From the NCBI GenBank assembly GCA_030614005.1, contig JAUWKS010000057.1, positions 1-20,675 of the forward strand: DNA of 20,675 nt. Reading direction: 5' to 3'. Positions 2,179-17,772 of the stretch are shown in pieces (positions within the stretch are counted from its first letter, which is position 1; every line of letters begins with the position of its first letter). The notes under the pieces were generated by a model. The model searched no databases, had not been told where the DNA came from, and saw only the letters and a list, made by a program, of their open reading frames with translations. This DNA comes from Candidatus Heimdallarchaeota archaeon. Its GTDB lineage: Archaea; Asgardarchaeota; Heimdallarchaeia; JABLTI01. Made by a program: the position numbers and the translations under genes.

Positions 2179-4389
2179 TTAATATTCTACTTCTGTATCC
2201 GGGGTTTCGACAGATTTTGCTTTCTCAGAAGCTCTCCTAATTTTTCTTCTTCTTAGAATTAATGTCAATGCAGCTATACCAAAAACAAAACTACCAGTTA
2301 TAACTAAAATAATAATACCTCGTTGTATTATAAAACGAGTTAATTGGACAATCTCAAGATTTACTTCCAAGGCTGAAAGATAGACTTTATTTTCACTTAC
2401 AACAAAACTTGTTATGCTTTCATTACAGCTGAAGATTCCTTCAAGATATGGAGAGTTTCTATCCTCAAAATTGATGAAATAAAGATTACTTCCCCTACTA
2501 CCTGATACGTAATTCCTCTCTAATACGTAAATAATATCAGCACTAACTATTACCTCTTTATAACCACGTTTTGAATGGAGAGCTATTTGTGAGAATCTAA
2601 ATGTTTCAACAGGTGAAAATGGATTTGTTATATTAAATACATGTGTGTCAGATACTGTCGAAACGAAAGCAAAATTATCTGAAATATGAAAGTTATAAAT
2701 ATATGACACTAAATTTAGAGGTGTTTGAGATATAAGAGATAAATTATAAGGTTCGTATGAAAATATCGAAAAATTTTCGGAATCTATTAAGTAAAGATTA
2801 TTATTTTTATAAGCAAAATTAAAAAAGTATCCAAGTTCTATTTGTTCAACCAATTCAAAATTTGTTTTAGTAGACAAATCATACACTCTTAGAATTTTAG
2901 GAGAATACCAAGGAATCACTGAATAGGAAGCTATTAAGAAATCACCACAGACCTGAATGAAAAAAGGATCTCTTTTTAGATTATTTATTTCCACTAAAAT
3001 GCTCTCAGTCTGCAAAAGAACCGGATTTTCTAAATCAGAAAAGTCAACAATATGAACATTTGCTTCCCAGTCATTATCGCTATATACATAAGCTAATTCA
3101 CCTCTAATTTGAACAAATATGCAATGTTTTCCACTGAGAATTCTACTTCTAAATATTGGTTTATCAAAATTATTAATATGATAGATTTCTAAGCCGCTAA
3201 AACCATTGGCAATGAGTACCGTTTTGCCACTAATAGCAACATCATACCCGCAACCTGAAAGGAGGTAAATTGAAACAAATGTAGGATTTTGATGGTCAAG
3301 AAGCGAATAAATTTCTATGCCTTCATTTATATTAAAAAGAAAAAGGTAATCGCTTATTAGTTGTTGGGTTCTATAATTACCGGCATTATAATCTCTGGAT
3401 ATCAGAGTGATTTCTGTTGGATTGTAAATATCAAAAACATGAATACCAGTTTTTTGGTCAAGGACATATGCAAGAGATTCAACGATATTAATTTGATTGA
3501 AAATTGTTGTGTTATCCATTGAATAATCAAGTAGACTTGGATTGGATGGATCCGAACAATCAATAGCAAATACTTGACCACCTGTAGTAACAGTATAAGC
3601 AATATTTCCCGAAACAGAAATATCAGTAAAAGTGCCATTTATATTGTTGGTAGAATTAAAAATTCCTAGTTGAACCGGAGCAGTAAAATCGGATATATCT
3701 ACTATCTCAAATGAGTCATCATACATTAGATACACGTAATCATTTTCAAGATAGATACTTACTATACTAGTAAAATTAGTGATTGTCCCTTCATATTTGT
3801 TAAGATATTTTGGAGAAGATATAGTAGATATATCAAGTAGTATTAACGCATTCCAATCCCGCCCATATAAAATGTCATCTTTTATAATACAATCATCTAA
3901 ATTGCTAACATTACTAATTTGACCATTAAATATTATCTGAGGTTTTTTCAAATTTGAAAAGTCAATTATTGCTATTCCTGTATATGAGAAATCTACAATA
4001 AGTAGATTGTTTATTGCATCTATATTGTAAATATAATTTGAATAACCGAAATCGATTGTAGATATGTATTTAGGTTTATTATGATCCGAAAAATCAAAAG
4101 CTAAAATACTATTACCTGTCGAAATATAAGCTACTTTTTTATTAGAAAATTCTGCTGCAGAAAAATCCCAAATAGTCTTCCCGATGTTAGAATCATATTC
4201 ATTCAATTTTGTACAATTTACTCCTGTGTATGAATTATCACCATAGATGGAATCTGAATCGGGAGTTGAAAATACTTGTTTTAATGCTATACCAGTAATA
4301 GAAGGAATAATTGATGTATATAGAAAATTAGTTGCAAATAAAAGAATTAGAATGATAGAAAATTTCTTAGTTGATATAATTCTTATCAA
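2179..4389 (-). CDS. LVIVD-repeat beta-propeller surface protein, paralogue 2, with C-terminal TM helix and basic tail
   Basis: ORF track gives 2179..4566. It contains repeated L/I-x-I/V-V/I-D-x-S-x-P units and ends in GIIILVITGSFVFGIAALTLIL-RRRKIRR. The start is placed at TTG 4389 because GGAGAG..ACTAAT sits at the same spacing as before the paralogue's ATG; ATG 4413 is an alternative. Confidence 0.88.
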   Translation of the reverse strand: MIRIISTKKFSIILILLFATNFLYTSIIPSITGIALKQVFSTPDSDSIYGDNSYTGVNCTKLNEYDSNIGKTIWDFSAAEFSNKKVAYISTGNSILAFDFSDHNKPKYISTIDFGYSNYIYNIDAINNLLIVDFSYTGIAIIDFSNLKKPQIIFNGQISNVSNLDDCIIKDDILYGRDWNALILLDISTISSPKYLNKYEGTITNFTSIVSIYLENDYVYLMYDDSFEIVDISDFTAPVQLGIFNSTNNINGTFTDISVSGNIAYTVTTGGQVFAIDCSDPSNPSLLDYSMDNTTIFNQINIVESLAYVLDQKTGIHVFDIYNPTEITLISRDYNAGNYRTQQLISDYLFLFNINEGIEIYSLLDHQNPTFVSIYLLSGCGYDVAISGKTVLIANGFSGLEIYHINNFDKPIFRSRILSGKHCIFVQIRGELAYVYSDNDWEANVHIVDFSDLENPVLLQTESILVEINNLKRDPFFIQVCGDFLIASYSVIPWYSPKILRVYDLSTKTNFELVEQIELGYFFNFAYKNNNLYLIDSENFSIFSYEPYNLSLISQTPLNLVSYIYNFHISDNFAFVSTVSDTHVFNITNPFSPVETFRFSQIALHSKRGYKEVIVSADIIYVLERNYVSGSRGSNLYFINFEDRNSPYLEGIFSCNESITSFVVSENKVYLSALEVNLEIVQLTRFIIQRGIIILVITGSFVFGIAALTLILRRRKIRRASEKAKSVETPDTEVEY

Positions 4390-4568
4390 ATTAGTAATCC
4401 TCTCCTTTTTCATTTTGTTGTACCATATAAACAAAACCCACTTGAAAATGATAATCTTTATTTTATAAAAATTTACTGTTTTAGTATTTTTACTGAAATG
4501 TCCACCTAAACAAAAAATCTGAAGTAAAAACTTTTGAAAAAGAGAGTTAGGAGTGAACAACTTCAAAA

Positions 4569-5063
4569 TTATTGTTTGCTAAAACGATTATCGGCTACTG
4601 TCTTTTCAATATCTCTTTTTTCATACCAACCGTTTTTTGCTTCAGGATAAGAATCAAAATCGGTGATGTATGGCTTAATATCCAATAATGGTGTTTGATC
4701 CAACATATCTGCCCCTAAGAAGATAATCTCAATTACATTATTTTTTACATTTATTTCGAGTAATTGAACAACAGAAATACCAATAGGATTAGGTCTATTG
4801 GGTGCCCTAAAAGCAAACAATCCAATTTCGTTTGTACTGAGGAATGGTCTCATTTGTAGTTTTGGTTTTTTAGCTTTGTGAAAATGATAAAGCATTATAA
4901 TATGTGAGAATTCCTTTAATCCTTGTGTTGCTTTTAGATACTCTATCGGTATTATCGCTTTTCCTTTTTCTTTTGAAAATCTAGGTTGAATTGGCATTCC
5001 TTCTGATTTGTTAAATGATGTTCTGATAATTCCTATTGGTTTATATGATATTGTTTGTTCCAT
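4569..5063 (-). CDS. trmO: TrmO/TsaA-like tRNA t6A37 N6-methyltransferase (SAM-binding beta-barrel domain)
   Basis: Motifs YKPIGIIRT, GLKEFSHIIMLYHFH, GLFAFRAPNRPNPIGISVV and GADMLDQTPLLDIKPY. Likely start is ATG 5063 (MEQTISY); the ORF track extends to 5135. Confidence 0.88.
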   Translation of the reverse strand: MEQTISYKPIGIIRTSFNKSEGMPIQPRFSKEKGKAIIPIEYLKATQGLKEFSHIIMLYHFHKAKKPKLQMRPFLSTNEIGLFAFRAPNRPNPIGISVVQLLEINVKNNVIEIIFLGADMLDQTPLLDIKPYITDFDSYPEAKNGWYEKRDIEKTVADNRFSKQ

Positions 5064-5247
5064 AATACTATCCCTATCTAGCAGTGATTGATTTTTACTA
5101 TAAATTTTTTCAGTTAAGAATAATACCAAAATCAAACGAAATTTTTTCTCCGAGTTTTTTTTGTCGAAATATTAATTAAATTCATAATTTTTTCTCGAAA
5201 ATTTTATTATTTTGAGTTTATTATAATGAGTAAAAGAGGTAATCATT

Positions 5248-9009: not shown

Positions 9010-10764
9010 CTAGAAGAAACTAAACGTCAAAGGACCTCGAGGTAGAAGCAAGAAAAATAACAGGAAAGATTGCAAAAATGCTGTTATCAGTGGTTTTTTC
9101 CATATACTTTCGAGCAATTCGCCTAAGATAAAGATGAAAGTGATGATCAAAACACTATGAATACCATCGAAGAAATAGATGAGCGTTCCGGAAAAACCAA
9201 TGGCTGCTACACCTGCAATGAAAGGTATTAAGAATAGTAGATAATTAACGAATTTTCTAATGCGCCATTTTTCACCTACTTTCTCAATAAGGTTACTCTC
9301 AATATTAATGAAATAATAACCAACAAAGCTTAGGAGAAAAAGAATAAGCAACCAAAGAAGTCGAATATTAGCTGGAAAAACATGATAGAGGAATGAACTT
9401 AAGAAAATTGCAAATAATGTAGTAAACGCTATGAACACTGCTAACCCAATCAATATCTGACGCCAATTCCATTTTTCTTTTAAATCTTGAATCTTCATTC
9501 GCCATTTTCCTTGAACCCCTGGCATTTTATCAATTGAATAAAAAGTCATCATTAGCATACCATATCCGAAAAATGGGCACAAGTAAATAAAAGCAAAATA
9601 TGGCTTAGCAACTGGAATGAAATTAAAAACAAGAACTGGAATAAAACCAAGGACAAATCCACCGAGAATAAACAATGGTTTAAACCCAAGGAATTTTGAG
9701 AAATTAACTAATTCCAAATATTCGTTACTAACAAGTTTTACTTTTTCGGAATTATCTTCTAATTTTTGATTGCCTTTTATTGAGCTTTCAAAAGCACTCC
9801 ACCAAAAAATACCAAAAATTGCTGTTAGAAATATACTAACAATTTCTACTATGATAAATAATACGCGAAAATCATTGAATGAAGTGAGACCAACCATAGC
9901 ATGAGGATAATCTTCCCACAAACAAAATTTTCGTATTTGATTTATTACAGATGGAGAAATCGGTTCATATGTGTGAACTAATCGTGATACAACAAATAAT
10001 TTTCTCATATACCCTCCAGAAGTATTGGTATAATGCTGATAGAATCTTGGAGCTGTAGATATTTCTTCTAAATCAGCGATTGTAGTATTTGACAATGAAT
10101 TGTATGTATCAATTGCTTCACTAGGTGTAAGGATATCATCCCAAGTCCCAGTGATAATTAAGATATCTGTTGCCGGATTGTTTGGTCCTAAGTCAACAAG
10201 ACCATTATCAGAAGCTTTTGTGGGAATTGCCCCACCAAGTAAAACTAAACCAGAAACATTCTCAGAATCAATTAAAGTAGCACGAAGTATACCAGCGGCA
10301 CCCATACTATGACCGACTAAATGAATTTATGAACTATCTAAACCGGAAATTTGCTTAAATTTCTCTTTAGCCAGCAATATTTGTTCTGCGATGTAATTAG
10401 ATGAATTGTTTCCATCAAGCGAACCCGTTGATCTTCCATGCCCTGCGAAATCAGTTGAAAATACATGGAAACCCAAACGAACCAGATCGTTTGCAATAGA
10501 TTTCATCGATGTTCCATCTTCACCAAATCCATGAAACAACATAACTCCTCTGTTTAAGGTTCCAGGATAATACTTGCTGAATAGTATTTCATCCGAAGGT
10601 CCTTGAAATCTAACAGTGGAATTATCACACAAAACACTATCATTGTAGAGAAGGAAACTCATAGAAGTTAGTGATGATAGAAAACATATTAGAGCAACAA
10701 TTCCAAGAATGATCTTTTTATTCAAACAGATTCCCACACAATTTATTCTACCATAAGAATCCAA
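9010..10764 (-). pseudogene. alpha/beta hydrolase with C-terminal multi-pass membrane domain, interrupted by one in-frame TAA (10327-10329)
   Basis: ORFs 10327..10764 and 9010..10305 are in the same frame. Reading across gives SGLDSS*IHLVGHSMGAAG. FHGFG, DFAGHGRS, GHSMG, TGTWDD and a candidate His (LVHTY) form one enzyme, followed by many hydrophobic helices. The start codon is uncertain. Confidence 0.8.
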
Positions 10765-10806
10765 TCATCTATTATATCTCTTTTTGCTAGATTAGAGCTG
10801 GTATTC

Positions 10807-10821
10807 TTATATTAAATATAA
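10807..10821. promoter_or_regulatory. palindromic TATA-like element in the divergent hydrolase/methyltransferase spacer
   Basis: TTATATT-A-AATATAA, 21-35 nt upstream of ATG 10842. It is AT-only, so it could be chance. Confidence 0.35.
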
Positions 10822-10841
10822 TCAAGGAAACTAGAAGGAAA

Positions 10842-11501
10842 ATGACAGAAAATAAGAACATATCTGTTGCTGCCCCGGATAAATGGATGGCAGGCTGGGA
10901 TAATTATTTTAAAAAATTATTAGAACAATCAGATGATGCATTGATGGATTTATCTGCAATTAGTCATCCAATTTAGTGTTTAGCTGCTCCAATACGTGAT
11001 AAAGCTAATGATATGAAAGGGATTGATTTTGCTTGTGGACAAGGATCAACAACACTCTTTTTAGCCAAATTAGGGGTGCAAATGGAAGCAATTGATGCAT
11101 TAGTCAATGCTATTATCATCGTTAAAAAACGTGCAAAATTAATGGGGTTATCTGATAAAATAAATGCTTATCAAAAAGATATAGATGGTTGGGAGTTAAA
11201 ACCTGAAAGCTATGATATCATTATTGCCACTCAATGTTTACAATACCTCTTTGATCGCGCAATACCAAGATTAGAAGAATTGGCTTCGGCAGTAAAACCT
11301 GGAGGGTTTTTGGTTTACTCTGGGAATGTTCCTCCTCATTTCAAATTAGATCCGCCGATGAAATTTATTTATCAAGAAGAATTAGATGAAATTTTCGAAG
11401 GTTGGTTATATCATAGTAAAGGGACAGATGAACGTTTATTGCGTCCAAATGATCTTAGAGGATATATATGGTTAGTAGCACAGAAACAAAAAAAGGAGTA
11501 A
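10842..11501 (+). pseudogene. class I SAM-dependent methyltransferase, interrupted by one in-frame TAG (10974-10976)
   Basis: ATG 10842 is in frame with ORF 11013..11501: MTENKNISV...SAISHPI*CLAAPIRDKANDMKGIDFACGQG. Motif I IDFACGQG, AIDA, QKDI, YDIIIATQCLQYL and KPGGFL are present. Starting at 11013 would put motif I at residue 4. Confidence 0.75.
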
Positions 11502-11502
11502 A

Positions 11503-13230
11503 TTAGAACTTTTTCCTCTTCTTTTTTGTAAGAACGATTATTGCAACTGTAGCAAATAGAATAACATAAATATTATTCACTGGTACAAAGGCTGAATAAC
11601 CAAAAGGTGTTGTTGGTAAAGTTGATTCATTATCGTCATAAATTAATGGATCTCGTCCTAAAAGAATCTCTTCTCCATCATCAACACCATCTCCGTCTGT
11701 ATCTGCAGTAAAAACAGAAGTGTGGTAAATTGTTGCTTCAAGATTATTCGCTAAATTATCATTGTCTAAATCATCATATCTATCAAACACAAGAGGATTT
11801 AAACCAACCATAATTTCCCACCCATCAAGAAATCCGTCTGAATCGGTATCTGCGTTTGTTTCATTGGTGCAATAAAATTTCTCAGTTAATTCATCTAACA
11901 AATCACCATCATAATCACCGAAACCTGTGTGATAATTTGACCCAAGAAAACATGGCCAAACACTTATACCAGAATCTTGTGAAGTATTTATTTCTAAACA
12001 TTTGACTTTGTCATTATATTCTCCACAGAAAATATTGTTCTTTCCATCTAAATTCAAATCACCTACTAATGGGTTGCTGTACGAAAAATTATGTATTGGA
12101 TAGGCATCTAATACTGTTCCATTATAATCTAAACAAGTTATCTCGTAATTCACTACAATTATTTCTTGATTTCCATCACCGGTTAAATCTGACAAAACAA
12201 CAGAAGATTTTGGTGAATGAGAACCTGCGTCAGTTGTCCAATTTAATGAACCATTACTACTAAAACAATATAACTTGTTAGATGATGACTGAATGAGAAT
12301 TTCTAGTGAGCCTTCATTATCTATATTTGCAATAACAGGTGAACCTTCAAATGTTTCATACTCTGTAGCAGTTGCTGTTACTGACCAAAGTAAACTTCCA
12401 TCAGAATCATAATTACAGAATCTTTCTCCAGTACCAACATAAATCTCATGTTTCCCATCTAAGTCCACATCATATATCGCTGGAGATGAACCTGTGCTTA
12501 ATTCTCCAATTAAAGCTGTTTTCCAAAGAAAATCTCCTTGATCATCAATGCAATAAATATACCCATCAATACAAGTGAAAACAATTTCATATTCAGGATC
12601 GGAATCAACATTTAGCAGTGATGGAGTACAATACACATCGTTATCAGTTGTATATTCCCATCGACTAAAATCATCAGCATTGATACAGATAATTCCAAAT
12701 CTTGTACCAATAATTATTTCAAAAACACCATCTAAATCTTGATCACCAATACAAGGAGAAGAAGTATGAAATGGATAGATACCATAATTTTCGGAAATTT
12801 TCACTGCTTTTTCTTTATTTCCTTTAAAATCGTAAATAAAAATAGTATCTGAATCAAGTCCACCCAGAGTAATTATTTCTAATTGTGAATCATTATCAAT
12901 ATCAACAATACAAGGTGTAGAAATATACTTGAAAGATTCAGATTGTGACCAGATTGTCTTTCCTGTTCTTCCATTTAAACAGTATAAATAAGATCCCGAA
13001 AGAAAAACTATGTCCAGAAACCCATCTCCATTTAGATCTGCATAGTGAGGAGAGCAACCTTCCAATTTTAATTCTCTTTCCCATGTTAAGCTTAATGATA
13101 TTGTATCATCAGAATTTATTCCGTTGTTAAAGTTGTCAAAATTGACGTGGTTACTACTAACACTCAAATCGACAGAAAATGCTCCAAAAAGAATAATTGT
13201 TGCAATCAATAATCCAATTTTTTTCCCCAT
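11503..13230 (-). CDS. FG-GAP/VCBS-like repeat beta-propeller surface protein with DxDxDG calcium-binding (TSP3-like) repeats and C-terminal TM anchor
   Basis: Seven D-x-D/N-x-D-G-like repeats (DLNGDGFLDI, DIDNDSQLEI, DQDLDGVFEI, NVDSDPEYEI, DVDLDGKHEI, NIDNEGSLEI, DLTGDGNQEI) plus DLNLDGKNNI, then DYDGDLLDE, DTDSDGFLDGWE, DLDNDNLAN and DTDGDGVDDGEE. It has an N-terminal signal and a C-terminal TM plus KKKRKKF. Likely start ATG 13230; the track gives 13260. Confidence 0.85.
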   Translation of the reverse strand: MGKKIGLLIATIILFGAFSVDLSVSSNHVNFDNFNNGINSDDTISLSLTWERELKLEGCSPHYADLNGDGFLDIVFLSGSYLYCLNGRTGKTIWSQSESFKYISTPCIVDIDNDSQLEIITLGGLDSDTIFIYDFKGNKEKAVKISENYGIYPFHTSSPCIGDQDLDGVFEIIIGTRFGIICINADDFSRWEYTTDNDVYCTPSLLNVDSDPEYEIVFTCIDGYIYCIDDQGDFLWKTALIGELSTGSSPAIYDVDLDGKHEIYVGTGERFCNYDSDGSLLWSVTATATEYETFEGSPVIANIDNEGSLEILIQSSSNKLYCFSSNGSLNWTTDAGSHSPKSSVVLSDLTGDGNQEIIVVNYEITCLDYNGTVLDAYPIHNFSYSNPLVGDLNLDGKNNIFCGEYNDKVKCLEINTSQDSGISVWPCFLGSNYHTGFGDYDGDLLDELTEKFYCTNETNADTDSDGFLDGWEIMVGLNPLVFDRYDDLDNDNLANNLEATIYHTSVFTADTDGDGVDDGEEILLGRDPLIYDDNESTLPTTPFGYSAFVPVNNIYVILFATVAIIVLTKKKRKKF

Positions 13231-13342: not shown

Positions 13343-15793
13343 TTAATATTTATAATGAGTTTCAATAAAGCCTGCTTGTAAACTTGAGAGTAGCAGTTGT
13401 ATGCCATCTGATAATTCCAATAATGTTTTACTTTCAAAATCTCTTTTTTGTAGGATTTGAATTTCTTCGAATAGTTCTGGATGGAATTGCAATGTATAAT
13501 CTCTTTTTATCATATTTGTTTTAGGATTATAATAATAAATGACCATACCAGCTATTTCAGTTAAATAATCTCCATCTTTACTTTCAATGCTATAGAGAGT
13601 TGAGCTTGGTATTTCTAATCCAAATGGTAATGTTGTTAGTTCACTTAAACCCTCATCTTCTAGTAATAATTCGAAATTTTTCTGTGAAAAATCAGCAATT
13701 TTCTTGAATGCCCAATTGAAAAATAGCACTGCTTCTTCATTTACTTCATCACCGTGTAGCATAATAATATCCAAGGTCTCTAATGAGTAAAGATCTTCTA
13801 ACATTCCAGTTTGGAATATAGCTGTATCTTGATATTCATCTAGCATTTCCTTTGAATTTTTGGAAGCTTCTGGTCTGAATTTCACTAGTTTTTTTAACCC
13901 AAATTCAGGTAGTTCATTTTTCTTTACAGCAAAATATTGATCATTTATACTATTAGCAATGATTTCTTCGTTTCGATTCTTAATAGCCAAATTATTTCCT
14001 TGCGATTTTATTTCACCTATTGTTTTCAAAAACTCCTCGCTTACAATTTTACTCTTTTTAGAGATTATTTTGGCAATTTTCTCTGCTTTTTTGCACAATT
14101 CTACAATGTAATCCCTGAATGTTTCTGCTACACCTTGGTGTCCTAAACAAATGAAAAGTGCAGGACTGGATCCAGGGTTATTTCTCGCTAGCATTATTGA
14201 ACGTAGCAAATGCAAATAGTCTTTTCTTTCAAAATTTCCATTTGTAATCTCAGTAAAGCTTTTGCTATCATAAAGTGATTGTCTTCCACCTTCCACGATG
14301 ACATATCTAAAAGATCGTAGAAATTCTCCCAACGATTCGCCAACACAATGCTCTTTGACTTTATCGAGAAATTTGGCATAACTCATTTCAGATAATTCAA
14401 GAATGACAACATTCCAATCAAGTATCTCTTTAGTTATTGTTGCAAAGTTTTTTGATGCATCAATCAATTCTCCCCATTGATTTGATCCAATAACAGTATC
14501 TGGTTTTAAAATAACGGCCCATTTACTTCTTTGATTTGGATTACTAAAATGACTTTTGTATGCTTTTTCGAATTCTGCAATAGAACTAATAGTTATTTGT
14601 TGAGTTTCTTTTTTGTTCAAGAAACGTTGAATTTTCTGCAATGAAATTTCAAATGGTAAATTGAAGAAAGGATCTTTTAGTGGTATTGGGTATCCAATGA
14701 GTTTTTCATATTTCTTTCTGCTAGTATAGGATCTAAAGTCAACACCTGCAAGAAAAGCTATTTTGATGAAAATATCTGCAGGAATTTTCATTTTCTTAGC
14801 GAATTTCTCTAGCTCTTTTTTATGACCTAAAAGATAAGAAAGTTTTATCTGACTGTGAGCAATGCTAAAATCACCAGAAGGTATAGCACCTTTCATTATC
14901 GGTAACCAAGCATTTTGGTAGACAAAATCTTGAGTACCAATGGGCGTTTGGGAGGATAAAATAACGATCTTACCATTCGCAATTGCTTGTTCAATTGCTG
15001 GTAAAGGCGAATGACCGGAATTGATATCAGTGTTTATTGTTCCACTTCCATAGGCATTTAATATTATTCCATCTGCAGAAGCAAATCGTTTCCGGTACTC
15101 TTCTTCAGTCATCATTGGAGTGGTATTTACAACAATTATTTTTTGATTAAATTTGGTGTCGCAAAAAGTGGTAAATCCAACATTCTGACATTCTTTAGCA
15201 ATTCTTTTACAAATTTGAAACCAAGAATCCAAAATCAAATCTGAAGAATCCTTGGACATCAAAGAGATTGATTCGAATTCATGAAAAAAACCAGCGAACT
15301 TTTGAGTAATATAATCTGAAATTAGATTTGCTGTTGGAGTTAACACTCCATCTTCATTGTGCTCAGATTCGATAGTTCCTCCAGTTCTAATAAGAAATAA
15401 TTTATCCAATTTTCGGTTCAAATTCAAAGGATAGGCTCTTCCACGAATGAAAATCTCATCTGAAGAAATCCTTGCTAATTCTTCTCCACGAAAAGCATCT
15501 GGGGACCATTTATCGATTTTCCAGAGATCATCTTGAAAAGCTGCTTGACCATTGTTAAATACAACAAAAATATTTGGTCCTGTAAGTTGTGTTAGTAATT
15601 TGATGGAATTCTCAACATTAGGATATACATCAGAAGAAGAAAATTGCATGCTAAAAGGCACTTGAGATCCTGTAATAGCTACATTTGCTGGGAGATTTTT
15701 GAGAGTATATCTAATAGCACTCAAAGCCCAAGACATAGAATCTGTTCCATGAGTTAAAAGAAAACCGATTTTTTTGGAGTATTTTCGCACCAT
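13343..15793 (-). CDS. permuted L-asparaginase/glutaminase fused to a class I glutamine amidotransferase domain
   Basis: Numbered on the 820-aa track ORF: THGTD 18-22, TGSQ 45-48, Lys96, TGGTI 141-145, DSS 186-188, then the asparaginase C-domain (GIILNAYGSG, SSQTPIG, GAIPSGD, KLSYLLG). GATase1 motifs follow: VEGGRQSLYD, ICLGHQ (Cys553), LHGDEV and QFHPE (His775, Glu777). Start is ATG 15793 or GTG 15805. Confidence 0.85.
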   Translation of the reverse strand: MVRKYSKKIGFLLTHGTDSMSWALSAIRYTLKNLPANVAITGSQVPFSMQFSSSDVYPNVENSIKLLTQLTGPNIFVVFNNGQAAFQDDLWKIDKWSPDAFRGEELARISSDEIFIRGRAYPLNLNRKLDKLFLIRTGGTIESEHNEDGVLTPTANLISDYITQKFAGFFHEFESISLMSKDSSDLILDSWFQICKRIAKECQNVGFTTFCDTKFNQKIIVVNTTPMMTEEEYRKRFASADGIILNAYGSGTINTDINSGHSPLPAIEQAIANGKIVILSSQTPIGTQDFVYQNAWLPIMKGAIPSGDFSIAHSQIKLSYLLGHKKELEKFAKKMKIPADIFIKIAFLAGVDFRSYTSRKKYEKLIGYPIPLKDPFFNLPFEISLQKIQRFLNKKETQQITISSIAEFEKAYKSHFSNPNQRSKWAVILKPDTVIGSNQWGELIDASKNFATITKEILDWNVVILELSEMSYAKFLDKVKEHCVGESLGEFLRSFRYVIVEGGRQSLYDSKSFTEITNGNFERKDYLHLLRSIMLARNNPGSSPALFICLGHQGVAETFRDYIVELCKKAEKIAKIISKKSKIVSEEFLKTIGEIKSQGNNLAIKNRNEEIIANSINDQYFAVKKNELPEFGLKKLVKFRPEASKNSKEMLDEYQDTAIFQTGMLEDLYSLETLDIIMLHGDEVNEEAVLFFNWAFKKIADFSQKNFELLLEDEGLSELTTLPFGLEIPSSTLYSIESKDGDYLTEIAGMVIYYYNPKTNMIKRDYTLQFHPELFEEIQILQKRDFESKTLLELSDGIQLLLSSLQAGFIETHYKY

Positions 15794-15805
15794 CTCTTTG
15801 GTCAC

Positions 15806-15857
15806 AACCGTTTTTTATAAAAATGAAACACAATAAGAAAATAACCTACTAACGGTT
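15806..15857 (-). promoter_or_regulatory. TATA box flanked by an inverted repeat, upstream of the asparaginase-GATase gene
   Basis: TTTATAAA on the minus strand 21-28 nt upstream of ATG 15793. AACCGTT (15806-15812) and AACGGTT (15851-15857) form an inverted repeat around it. Confidence 0.5.
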
Positions 15858-15872
15858 ATTTATCTTTCTTGT

Positions 15873-16898
15873 TTACTTGCTGTTTTTGAAGACATAAGCA
15901 ATTAAATTAGCAATAATATTAGCATAAAAACTAGATGCAATAGCAAGTTCTTCTGTGCCATCTACTCTACTAAAAATTAGCTTGACAGAACCTTTCTTAT
16001 AGGAAACGTTTTGGACAAATTTAACAGCTCGAGCCCAAACTTTTCCATCATCTGAACCAAAAAGAATTCTTGAGTCAGTGATAAAACAATCACAAGGAAT
16101 ATTACAATTAAAAGCTCCACTAACTTTCTCAACATTCCCCCAGAAGAGCACTTTCTCAGTTTTCCAATCAAAACCGGGTATGACAATCTTTATTCGATCT
16201 TCTAAATCGATAATGGATGTTTCACGAATGATCCTAACGCCAGTATCGCTTTTCGCTCTTTCTTCTAAAGCAGGTAGCTTCTTAGTTAATTCCAACAATT
16301 CTTGTAATAATCTATTAGAGAATCTTATCATTGTTTGAGAGCCATTTGTTCCTTTGATAAACAAGGCTTCAGTTTTCCCTAAAATAAGTGCTAATGGTTC
16401 ATCGCTAGCAATGCTATGAACTTTACATTTTTTTGTTGATAAAACATCACGTAAATCCTTAGAGATTTCTAGATTGTCATCTATCCAAGCTTCAGGGAAT
16501 TCATTCTCTTTTATGATAGTAATAACTGAACTTAGATTATTAAAAATCATAACAGGTGAAACGCTACTCTTTTGAGCTGATTTGTCTTGTAATTTAGAAA
16601 TGCCTTTTTTAACACTAGTGATGGTGGAAACTATCGAGTCGATAGCGTTGTCAATAGTATCTTCTGGTGGAAGAGCTTTAAAGAGCATTCCTTTTTCTGC
16701 TGGAACTTTCATTATGAACCCCAGCTCTACTAAACTATCTAAAACAGAGTAAACCTTTGCTCGTGGCACTCCAGATTCTTTTGCTATCAAGTAGGCAGTA
16801 GCTTCACCTAACACAAAACTCGCAATGTATACTTGCGATTGATACCTTTGTAATCCTATTTGAGTTAACCCGTCGATTAGCTTATTGTCAATTTGCAT
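15873..16898 (-). CDS. TrmB-family transcriptional regulator with a C-terminal PH-like domain candidate
   Basis: The N-terminal wHTH LTQIGLQRYQSQVY...ATAYLIAKESGVPRAKVYSVLDSLVELGFI is typical of TrmB. The C-terminal ~100 aa (CFITDSRILF...GSVKLIF...terminal helix) resemble a PH/GRAM-like fold. ATG 16898 is preferred; GTG 16907 is an alternative. Confidence 0.85.
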   Translation of the reverse strand: MQIDNKLIDGLTQIGLQRYQSQVYIASFVLGEATAYLIAKESGVPRAKVYSVLDSLVELGFIMKVPAEKGMLFKALPPEDTIDNAIDSIVSTITSVKKGISKLQDKSAQKSSVSPVMIFNNLSSVITIIKENEFPEAWIDDNLEISKDLRDVLSTKKCKVHSIASDEPLALILGKTEALFIKGTNGSQTMIRFSNRLLQELLELTKKLPALEERAKSDTGVRIIRETSIIDLEDRIKIVIPGFDWKTEKVLFWGNVEKVSGAFNCNIPCDCFITDSRILFGSDDGKVWARAVKFVQNVSYKKGSVKLIFSRVDGTEELAIASSFYANIIANLIAYVFKNSK

Positions 16899-16928
16899 TG
16901 CTATCACTTTTAAGCTTGTAATTTACGT

Positions 16929-17040: not shown

Positions 17041-17772
17041 GTGTCAAGAAGAAAAACGAAAAAAATAAGATTTATGACAGGGTTCGCAATATTAATGATT
17101 ATTTTCTCAATTTGTTTTGCCTTTCCTACAATAATCGAAGGAATCAATGTAGGACGAAATTGGCAAAGCTATACACAAATTGATCAAGTAATTACTTCAG
17201 ACTCATATTCTGTCATTAAATTTGATTTAGAGCCTAGTAATAGGGTATCCGCTGAGATTTCAGCGTACGATGCAATCTTTGTTCATGATGATCCTGTTCA
17301 GGTTATTTTTGCAATATTATCAGAAGGAGAATTTTCAGACTGGTATGATGCAGGAGAAAATGCACCAAATATCATCAACTCAACTCATTTTTATGAAAAT
17401 GCTGAGATCAAATTAGAGAATATAGGTGTCGATCTTGATAGAGACTATTATTTCATTTTCTATAATACAAATGCATTCACAATTCGAGTTGATCTTACTT
17501 TAACAATAATACCTTGGGGTCACATAATAGCAACAAGTATCGTTGGATTTGGTTTTGCAATATGCTTCCTTGGTTTACTCACAAAAATCGGATTTACAGG
17601 ATATTTCGTATTATCTCACAATGAAAAACCAAAAGTGCTCACAGTTCAATCACAAGGTAAAACTGAAGCAATTTTACAACCAGAAAAAGATGAAAACTTT
17701 TGCATTTCGTGTGGTGCACCAATAACCAAAAAGGATGGTCGTTATTGTCCAAGTTGTGGATCATCAACTTAA
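17041..17772 (+). CDS. membrane protein with C-terminal zinc ribbon
   Basis: Two TM segments flank an extracellular beta-rich region. The C-terminus is CISCGAPITKKDGRYCPSCG (CxxC..CxxC). GGAG lies upstream of the GTG start. Confidence 0.8.
   Translation: MSRRKTKKIRFMTGFAILMIIFSICFAFPTIIEGINVGRNWQSYTQIDQVITSDSYSVIKFDLEPSNRVSAEISAYDAIFVHDDPVQVIFAILSEGEFSDWYDAGENAPNIINSTHFYENAEIKLENIGVDLDRDYYFIFYNTNAFTIRVDLTLTIIPWGHIIATSIVGFGFAICFLGLLTKIGFTGYFVLSHNEKPKVLTVQSQGKTEAILQPEKDENFCISCGAPITKKDGRYCPSCGSST

Follow-up and report, generated by a model that had tools for sequence, protein, structure and literature searches.

A conserved Asgard-archaeal fusion of a rearranged asparaginase with an unusual glutamine amidotransferase-type domain

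We analysed a stretch of 20,675 nucleotides from Candidatus Heimdallarchaeota archaeon (assembly GCA_030614005.1, contig JAUWKS010000057.1; the whole stretch is called the window below) and studied in it one open reading frame (ORF) on the minus strand at 13343–15793. This ORF is a conserved, uncharacterised Asgard-archaeal fusion of a rearranged asparaginase with an unusual domain of the glutamine amidotransferase (GATase) type. A preliminary description, made from the sequence, had proposed that an asparaginase and a class I GATase-type module are joined here in a single chain. The fusion is genuine, and both catalytic sets are intact. Nothing on this fused architecture was found in the literature, and the homologues are named in databases only as "asparaginase domain-containing protein" or "hypothetical". 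The gene and the segments of its product are as follows.

13343..15793, minus strand: coding sequence of the fused enzyme, 816 aa, ATG at 15793 and stop codon at 13343–13345 (from the ORF list and its translation, codons checked)
15440..15781, minus strand: second half of the asparaginase N-domain, placed first (residues 9–122, canonical 73–185)
15170..15418, minus strand: first half of the asparaginase N-domain, placed second (residues 130–212, canonical 1–72)
14786..15163, minus strand: asparaginase C-terminal domain (residues 215–340; PF17763; aligns to residues 196–318 of 5ot0)
14612..14785, minus strand: helical extension of the permuted-asparaginase family (residues 341–398), the first half of what had been described as a linker
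13346..14611, minus strand: class I GATase-fold module with three insertions (residues 399–820; from the model, fold matches and conservation)

The minus-strand frame is uninterrupted over 13343..15805 and gives 820 aa if counted from GTG 15805. The starts of the homologues all correspond to Met5 (ATG 15793) and not to the upstream GTG; the likely start is therefore ATG 15793, with a product of 816 aa. Residue numbers are counted throughout from the in-frame GTG 15805, as in the preliminary description. That description took its coordinates from the ATG and its residue numbers (T144, C553, H775, E777) from the GTG, a mismatch of four residues; the residues themselves were confirmed by checking the codon positions directly (T144, 15374–15376; C553, 14147–14149; H775, 13481–13483; E777, 13475–13477), and the codons of T21, D22 and K96 were confirmed in the same way.

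Architecture and catalytic residues

The N-terminal part of the protein matched two asparaginase families above the Pfam gathering cut-offs (PF00710, 77 bits with a cut-off of 22.5; PF17763, 51 bits with a cut-off of 34.6), and the halves of its N-domain are swapped in sequence order. Residues 9–118 matched PF00710 profile positions 73–185, with phmmer alignments to 5ot0 and 1wls, and residues 135–206 aligned with asparaginase positions 2–72; on the DNA, PF00710 positions 67–185 mapped to 15452–15799 and positions 1–74 to 15185–15403. The segment placed first contains HGTD (Thr21-Asp22), GSQ and Lys96. The segment placed second contains the nucleophile Thr144, within TGGTIE, as well as the flexible loop and DSS (186–188), and the C-domain carries a G-S/G-G-x-x-N loop at 253–258. 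Hidden Markov models of the separate segments gave the order B-A-C in every fused protein, whereas canonical asparaginase controls gave A-B-C.

The full-length AlphaFold model (pLDDT 82.7, pTM 0.64) contained the two-domain alpha/beta asparaginase fold, which matched type I asparaginases and GatD at VIA Z 20–22 (Foldseek E 1.2e-12). With 5ot0, the VIA Z was 21.8 at a root-mean-square deviation of about 2.8–2.9 Å over 243 residues (model residues 10–363). Sequential structural alignment to asparaginases began only at chain residue 74, as expected because the N-domain halves are swapped. None of T144, T21, D22 and K96 varied in the 19 aligned sequences or in the 35 fused sequences examined, and neither did Ser187 or the G-x-G-x-x-N loop of the C-domain (253–258) among fused members, down to about 30% identity. 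Judged from these alignments, the catalytic asparaginase residues are never degenerate among the fused members examined.

Archaeal type I asparaginases (T. kodakarensis 5ot0, P. horikoshii 1wls and P. furiosus 4q0m) share with the fused enzyme the two-domain fold, at the VIA Z of 20–22 given above, the TGGT threonine, the HGTD-Lys triad, the DS[ST] loop and the glycine-rich C-domain loop. Unlike them, the fused enzyme has swapped N-halves and two family-specific traits, namely an acidic residue, Glu or Asp, behind TGGTI (TGGTIE, against TGGTIA in these enzymes) and the absence of the loop tyrosine, and it continues into an added helical extension of about 55 aa and then a GATase module of 420 aa. 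The curated whole-protein cut-offs for type I asparaginase and for GatD were missed (TIGR00519, 80.4 vs 260.5 bits; TIGR02153, 72.1 vs 324; NF003217, 76.3 vs 310).

GatD of GatDE (1zq1, 2d6f) belongs to the same superfamily (Z 21.1; NF003217 E 1.8e-21) and is a precedent for an asparaginase fold acting as a glutaminase. Unlike GatD, the fused enzyme has neither the GatD-specific N-terminal domain nor a GatE neighbour, and GatE was not found anywhere in the window. Its identification as GatD was rejected, with scores of 72–76 bits against cut-offs of 310–324 and a chain whose N-terminus already lies in the asparaginase domain. Among the genes of the genome are one with an Asn_synthase domain, one for a GatA-type amidase, two for GatD and one for GatE. 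The two GatD genes are full-length canonical paralogues (551 and 512 bits, at C81:31234-31803 and C74:9558-10145, loci L009 and L010), and only one stands beside GatE; the fused enzyme is therefore not a subunit of the tRNA-dependent amidotransferase. We also rejected a transamidase that fills a gap in Asn/Gln supply, since conventional routes to Asn and Gln are present and leave no such gap.

The C-terminal module was recognised mainly through its predicted structure. Residues 425–820 modelled alone gave a pLDDT of 84.6 and a pTM of 0.90, with Foldseek probability 1.0 to GATase subunits of GMP synthase (7d97, 2a9v). The VIA Z values were 16.4 for TM1158 (1o1y), 15.9 for SMU.1228c (3l7n) and 15.7 for PabA (8rp0), and for synthase-less hydrolases they were 15.7 (GGP1, 9k7i), 13.9 (SpuA, 7d50) and 13.0 (gamma-glutamyl hydrolase, 4l7q). 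Matches to the model in the ESM Atlas were GATase clusters, and a cyanobacterial cluster there matched it with TM 0.80 over 355 residues. PF00117 reached 17.9 bits, below its cut-off of 22.8 (the stand-alone relative P0038 scored 24.5 bits); a search of PDB sequences with a profile of the module gave, at E ≤ 1, chance helical matches but no GATase; and PF07722 was not listed for the fused enzyme at E ≤ 0.1. On the models, the assignment to the GATase1 fold is unambiguous, although the sequence evidence is thin. The fused protein is a clear case of a domain missed by Pfam-based architecture searches.

The Cys553/His775/Glu777 triad and the motifs quoted in the preliminary description are all present and conserved (GGRQSLYD 506–513, ICLGHQ 552–557, PEFG 633–636, HGDEV 684–688 and QFHPE 773–777); the module also carries KPD (434–436), and its oxyanion loop EGGRQS (505–510), with the glycines G506-G507, and HGDE (684–687) can be delimited within this set. 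An hhalign comparison with the GMP synthase of the same genome agrees, with EGGRQSLYD and FICLGHQ falling on SGGPNSVYD and GLCYGHH. An equivalent of Cys553 occurred in 18 of the 19 aligned sequences, where H775 and E777 were invariant, and the latter two are kept in all fused members examined. The full set of Cys, His, Glu, GG loop, HGD and the Gln of GHQ is kept in 30 of 34 fused sequences examined, and the triad, GG, HGD and the GHQ Gln are kept also in stand-alone relatives, among them those from cyanobacteria and protists. Of the 396 module residues, about 200 align to known GATases and about 190 are insertions, chiefly a helical hairpin after the nucleophile helix, in agreement with the long helical insertions noted before.

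GuaA-type class I GATases (1o1y, 3l7n, the GuaA subunits of M. jannaschii and T. acidophilum, and PabA) share the fold over about 200 residues (Z 15–16.4), the triad in G-x-C-x-G-H-Q and Q-F-H-P-E, an SGGP-like oxyanion loop, E-F/Y-G and H-G-D. Unlike them, the fused enzyme has its roughly 190 inserted residues (the helical hairpin and two inserts) and an extra N-terminal strand-helix, it lies below the Pfam cut-off, its profile misses canonical GATases, and no synthase partner was found. Hydrolases of the peptidase C26 type with a GATase1 fold (GGP1 9k7i, SpuA/PuuD 7d50 and 4l7q) share fold and triad with the module and show that gamma-glutamyl hydrolysis alone can be the task of this fold, as we propose for the module; unlike them, the fused enzyme lacks the PF07722 match, and its QFHPE and HGD motifs are nearer GuaA. 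The absence of a synthase, which had been presented as an anomaly, was overstated: gamma-glutamyl peptidases, PuuD/SpuA and gamma-glutamyl hydrolase all work as hydrolases without a synthase and are among the top structural matches. The earlier placement in a GuaA-glutaminase/gamma-glutamyl-peptidase-like subgroup fits the fold ranking. The subgroup is not settled by the structural scores of the model, in which GGP1 and SpuA tie with amidotransferase subunits, and the motifs are closer to GuaA.

The joint between the modules and their distribution

The preliminary description had treated the stretch between the modules as a linker of about 100 aa. Residues 341–424 are instead folded and conserved, and half of them belongs to each module. 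The extension that follows the asparaginase C-domain has model helices at 343–396 and invariant Gly354, Phe357 and Asp378, and the same extension (to about residue 395; about 55 aa) forms the C-terminus of stand-alone permuted asparaginases. Residues 399–424 form a strand-helix that is packed on the GATase core in the predicted contacts, and stand-alone GATase relatives have an N-terminal extension, which is consistent with 399–424 belonging to the GATase module. The extension being kept in stand-alone asparaginases and 399–424 lying on the GATase core, the fusion joint therefore falls at about residue 398.

Contact between the heads was examined by complex prediction of residues 1–424 against 425–820, with a pass mark attained by 58 of 80 solved complexes and by 2 of 110 mismatched pairs. 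The score was 0.66, compared with 0.00 for the best control; runs agreed in at least 54% of contacts, and the pLDDT of the partners was at least 76. We rejected this score as proof of binding between the heads, since all confident contacts came from residues 399–424 and the cut lay inside a domain. None of the confident contacts ran from the asparaginase core to the GATase core, and the prediction does not bear on whether these two touch. Nothing supports an inter-site tunnel, for which the preliminary description had advised a search, the confident predicted contacts linking only 399–424 to the GATase core. The pTM of 0.64 for the full-length model, compared with 0.90 for the GATase module alone, suggests that the relative orientation of the modules is uncertain.

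A word search found 27 homologues, close and distant, with the same architecture, all labelled as metagenome-assembled genomes of the Heimdall-, Gerd-, Thor- or Asgard-group. Searching 1.84 billion representatives with the GATase-module profile returned 128 proteins only. About 17 of these 128 were fused clusters (clustered at 50% identity), all with the order B-A-C-link-GAT, and the rest were stand-alone proteins of 380–630 aa or fragments. Among 300 surveyed genomes of the phylum, 13 had a match; of the phylum genomes matching, 7 of 10 were in the window's own family, and one genus had the stand-alone GATase module only. The possibility that the fusion is unique to this assembly, raised earlier, does not hold, as many independent assemblies share it. 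The DNA itself recurred in cold-seep and marine-sediment metagenomes from 5 studies, and the expression look-up listed no RNA datasets containing it. At L021 5781-8185, in a related Heimdall-type genome (G258; contig C55), the fused enzyme's orthologue is a pseudogene in 4 pieces with 5 stops, and the TrmB, zinc-ribbon and methyltransferase genes beside it are intact.

Both modules are known as stand-alone families too, which speaks for an origin of the enzyme by fusion. Insertion-bearing stand-alone GATases of 380–630 aa, annotated as hypothetical and with the Cys-His-Glu triad intact, occur in marine picocyanobacteria and a few protists. Examples are those of Synechococcus WH 7805 (P0041/P0164, WP_006042952.1), Pelomyxa schiedti (P0047), Mastigamoeba balamuthi (P0052) and Ploeotia vitrea (P0040), the protists being Archamoebae (Pelomyxa, Mastigamoeba) and a euglenid (Ploeotia). 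Stand-alone permuted asparaginases of 385–414 aa occur in bacteria such as Rikenellaceae. Some bacterial permuted asparaginases (among loci L025-L061; e.g. L041 7983-9659 and L044 7995-9665) are fused to C-terminal Sel1 repeats, and those of L060 and L061 are extended by about 175 aa at the N-terminus. Their recurrent neighbours are a multi-copy 433-aa protein without a Pfam match, Amidase_2 and DUF1810. On the contig of L060, about 1.8 kb downstream of the permuted-asparaginase homologue, an 802-aa protein (9453-11858) combines GatB_N, GatB_Yqey and a canonical-order asparaginase. In this GatB-asparaginase and in the 60-kDa lysophospholipase/asparaginase with ankyrin repeats (9s7z), asparaginase is likewise one part of a longer chain; unlike the fused enzyme, such fusions have the canonical segment order and other partners, and none has a second amidohydrolase.

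Proposed function and competing explanations

From the architecture, fold, residue conservation and distribution described above, we infer catalysis, substrates, oligomeric state and regulation as follows. We give about an even chance to the reading that the protein is a self-contained, synthase-less amidohydrolase with two heads, one acting on Asn/Gln and the other on Gln or gamma-glutamyl amides, these substrates being assigned by analogy. Head 1 would be a type I asparaginase/GatD-like enzyme with swapped N-halves, using Thr144 on the TGGT loop as the nucleophile and Thr21-Asp22-Lys96 as the triad. By family analogy, it would be a probable dimer that deamidates free L-Asn and/or L-Gln by way of an acyl-threonine. 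Head 2, a predicted GuaA-type GATase fold with about 190 inserted residues, would employ Cys553-His775-Glu777 and the EGGRQS oxyanion loop and hydrolyse L-Gln or a gamma-glutamyl amide or peptide via a thioester. The heads would have come together at about residue 398 through fusion of two separately existing families. In the Heimdall-type clade, the gene, with a TATA-like promoter of its own, would lie behind a TrmB-family regulator that possibly controls its expression.

A stronger version would couple the heads, either in an ATP-free amide shuttle (Gln + Asp <-> Glu + Asn) or in the breakdown of a compound that carries both gamma-glutamyl and asparagine-type amides. In the shuttle, ammonia from the Cys site would pass to the acyl-threonine in the permuted asparaginase site. 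We consider coupling highly improbable; if true, both superfamilies would gain a reaction logic new to them, largely confined to Heimdall-type Asgard archaea.

Several observations weigh against the two-headed amidohydrolase. The fusion and both stand-alone families are known from sequences and models only. Stand-alone permuted asparaginases lie in variable islands and not in amino-acid catabolic operons. No GATase module was found within 8 kb of about 40 metagenome loci of stand-alone permuted asparaginases, and no asparaginase neighbour at the few stand-alone GATase loci fetched; the stand-alone modules not being neighbours, there is therefore no independent sign of one shared pathway. The changes beside the asparaginase nucleophile (TGGTIE and the missing loop tyrosine) could shift specificity. 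The GATase profile reached no canonical GATase in the 1.84 billion representatives or the PDB sequences, and, given this divergence, the substrate of the GATase module could differ from glutamine. Finally, the GATase nucleophile is Gly in four fused lineages (P0027, P0043, P0044 and P0081), and P0081 lacks the oxyanion and GHQ motifs too, yet retains the module; catalysis by head 2 therefore appears dispensable in some lineages. From the aligned sequences, head 2 would be under selection in most lineages and dispensable in some. The preliminary description had named a degenerate domain in homologues as a result that would count against it, and this applies in part: the GATase Cys is lost in these four lineages, whereas the asparaginase residues never vary.

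These losses also bear on a different explanation, in which the asparaginase head is the sole enzyme and the GATase-fold module is mainly ligand-binding, regulatory or scaffolding. The triad in most members would then be kept for binding glutamine or a gamma-glutamyl group and not for turnover. The contrast between asparaginase residues that are invariant in all fused members and a Cys553 replaced by Gly in four lineages is in line with it, as are the retention of the module in P0081 and the large insertions and extreme sequence divergence, which suggest an altered role. However, the full motif set is retained in 30 of 34 fused sequences and in stand-alone homologues in three domains of life, and retention over so long a divergence is what one would expect if selection acts on an active site. 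We rate both the sole-enzyme explanation and this account of the triad as quite improbable. Since GATases of the GuaA/PabA type, to which the head-2 module belongs, usually work for a synthase, the protein might also be a true amidotransferase that passes ammonia, released by the GATase head or by both, to an acceptor in a separate partner protein. The asparaginase-type GatD is itself the ammonia donor in GatDE, and archaeal GuaA GATase subunits work with separately encoded partners, both of which speak for such an arrangement. Yet the chain has no synthase domain; no conserved synthase-like gene was found in the 16 neighbourhoods examined, and neither a synthase gene nor a common neighbour at nine fused loci outside the close clade; and no longer fused forms (>1435 aa) were found, which is weak evidence. 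The confident predicted contacts do not link the catalytic cores, and with conventional Asn/Gln routes in the genome there is no gap for a new amidotransferase. A separate acceptor protein is quite improbable, and to the same degree so is the alternative in which the asparaginase module, run in the synthetic direction, is the acceptor.

It is unlikely that the enzyme is an amidase of signalling or conflict instead of catabolism, with one or both heads producing or degrading a small molecule or peptide that contains an amide. Equally unlikely is the extension of this idea in which the output is read by, or controlled through, the regulators next to the gene, namely the TrmB-family protein and two stand-alone receivers with a histidine kinase. 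The order receiver, receiver, (zinc-ribbon membrane protein), TrmB, enzyme is kept in the Heimdall-type clade, and in the Gerd-type locus receivers lie directly upstream with no TrmB, but this close-clade synteny may merely reflect relatedness. Distant fused members stand beside STAND-type AAA_16/TPR, M48 peptidase, transglutaminase and CAP genes, and also beside an LmjF365940-type deaminase (L007, 4 nt downstream), VWA, Tubulin_2 and NYN; these neighbours share no family except M48 (twice), however, which leaves guilt by association weak. The Sel1 fusions of stand-alone permuted asparaginases and their neighbours (Amidase_2, DUF1810 and multi-copy unknown genes) point in the same direction as the signalling idea, as do the surroundings of distant and stand-alone members, which resemble variable islands. 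According to a 2026 preprint (10.64898/2026.10.19.760177), asparaginase-family enzymes are predicted to make diffusible messengers within conflict systems based on V4R, which favours it as well, although those asparaginases have not been demonstrated to belong to the permuted clade. A PADLOC scan of the enzyme and five neighbours matched nothing but one weak receiver-domain hit.

The swapped-N-half asparaginase, the modified synthase-less GATase clade (whose stand-alone relatives occur in marine Synechococcus and certain anaerobic protists) and their fusion, which is mainly Asgard, all appear to be undescribed. Both folds are classical, and the novelty is a variant of known enzyme kinds and not a new kind of system. 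If both heads of the amidohydrolase are active, the protein would be a compact model of combined Thr-based and Cys-based amide-splitting chemistries, and would point to an unrecognised step in Asgard nitrogen/amino-acid handling or signalling. Its practical value is modest, as a new asparaginase scaffold with an unusual topology.

Neighbourhood and control region

Two further features lie directly upstream of the fused enzyme.

15873..16907, minus strand: TrmB-family regulator, 344 aa, co-oriented and directly upstream (PF01978, 59.5 bits)
15811..15861, minus strand: intergenic control region, with a palindrome at 15839–15861 followed by a TATA-like box at 15815–15822

The TrmB gene was directly upstream in the window and at L001, L008 and L016–L021, and 4 kb upstream at L002; it was absent at L003, L004, L005, L007, L023 and L024. 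The Gerd-type locus, P0022 and all the distant members lack it. The preliminary description had counted TrmB as part of an undescribed system. It is a neighbour in 10 of the 16 loci examined, but these are all one syntenic clade, and TrmB is better described as a lineage-specific candidate regulator than as part of a defining "system". In this close clade (at least 57% identity), the block runs from two receiver genes through a zinc-ribbon membrane protein, TrmB and the enzyme to a methyltransferase, with the zinc-ribbon and methyltransferase genes on the opposite strand. In the Gerd-type locus, two receiver genes abut the enzyme with no TrmB between. The zinc-ribbon gene of the window (17041-17772, plus strand) is divergent to TrmB and encodes 243 aa with N-terminal and late transmembrane segments and a C-terminal double zinc ribbon, the ribbons being its sole family assignment; its position beside TrmB is kept in 10 related loci. 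Distant fused members share no neighbour family save the M48 peptidase, seen twice. At the distant, high-GC locus L007, an M48 peptidase is directly upstream and the LmjF365940-type predicted deaminase (4163-5071) starts 4 nt after the enzyme's stop codon; at L003, an M48 peptidase lies 4 kb upstream of P0030.

Between TrmB and the enzyme, a perfect palindrome, AAATAACC-N7-GGTTATTT (15839–15861), lies just upstream of the TATA-like box TTTATAAA (15815–15822), which is about 25 nt before ATG 15793. By the usual archaeal spacing, this box fits a putative leaderless or near-leaderless transcript from the gene's own promoter. The palindrome pattern occurs once in the window, compared with 0.06 occurrences expected, and a similar AAATAAC...TTATTT element is found in the orthologous TrmB–enzyme spacers of L016–L020. 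A genome-wide search for AATAAC-N9-GTTATT gave 2 sites, compared with 7 for the reversed control, and so no enrichment. From its sequence and place, the palindrome is a candidate operator for the TrmB-family protein. For TrmBL1-type regulators, an operator upstream of the TATA box fits activation, and by analogy the position of the palindrome would fit activation here.

Two other genes of the window differ from their counterparts at L002. The 560-aa alpha/beta-hydrolase of L002 aligns continuously across two ORFs at 10327-10764 and 9010-10305 (window 9010-10764, minus strand), and the alignment of its 231-aa methyltransferase already begins at 10851, ahead of the ORF start at 11013 (window 10851-11501, plus strand). 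The hydrolase and methyltransferase genes of the window therefore each carry an in-frame stop.

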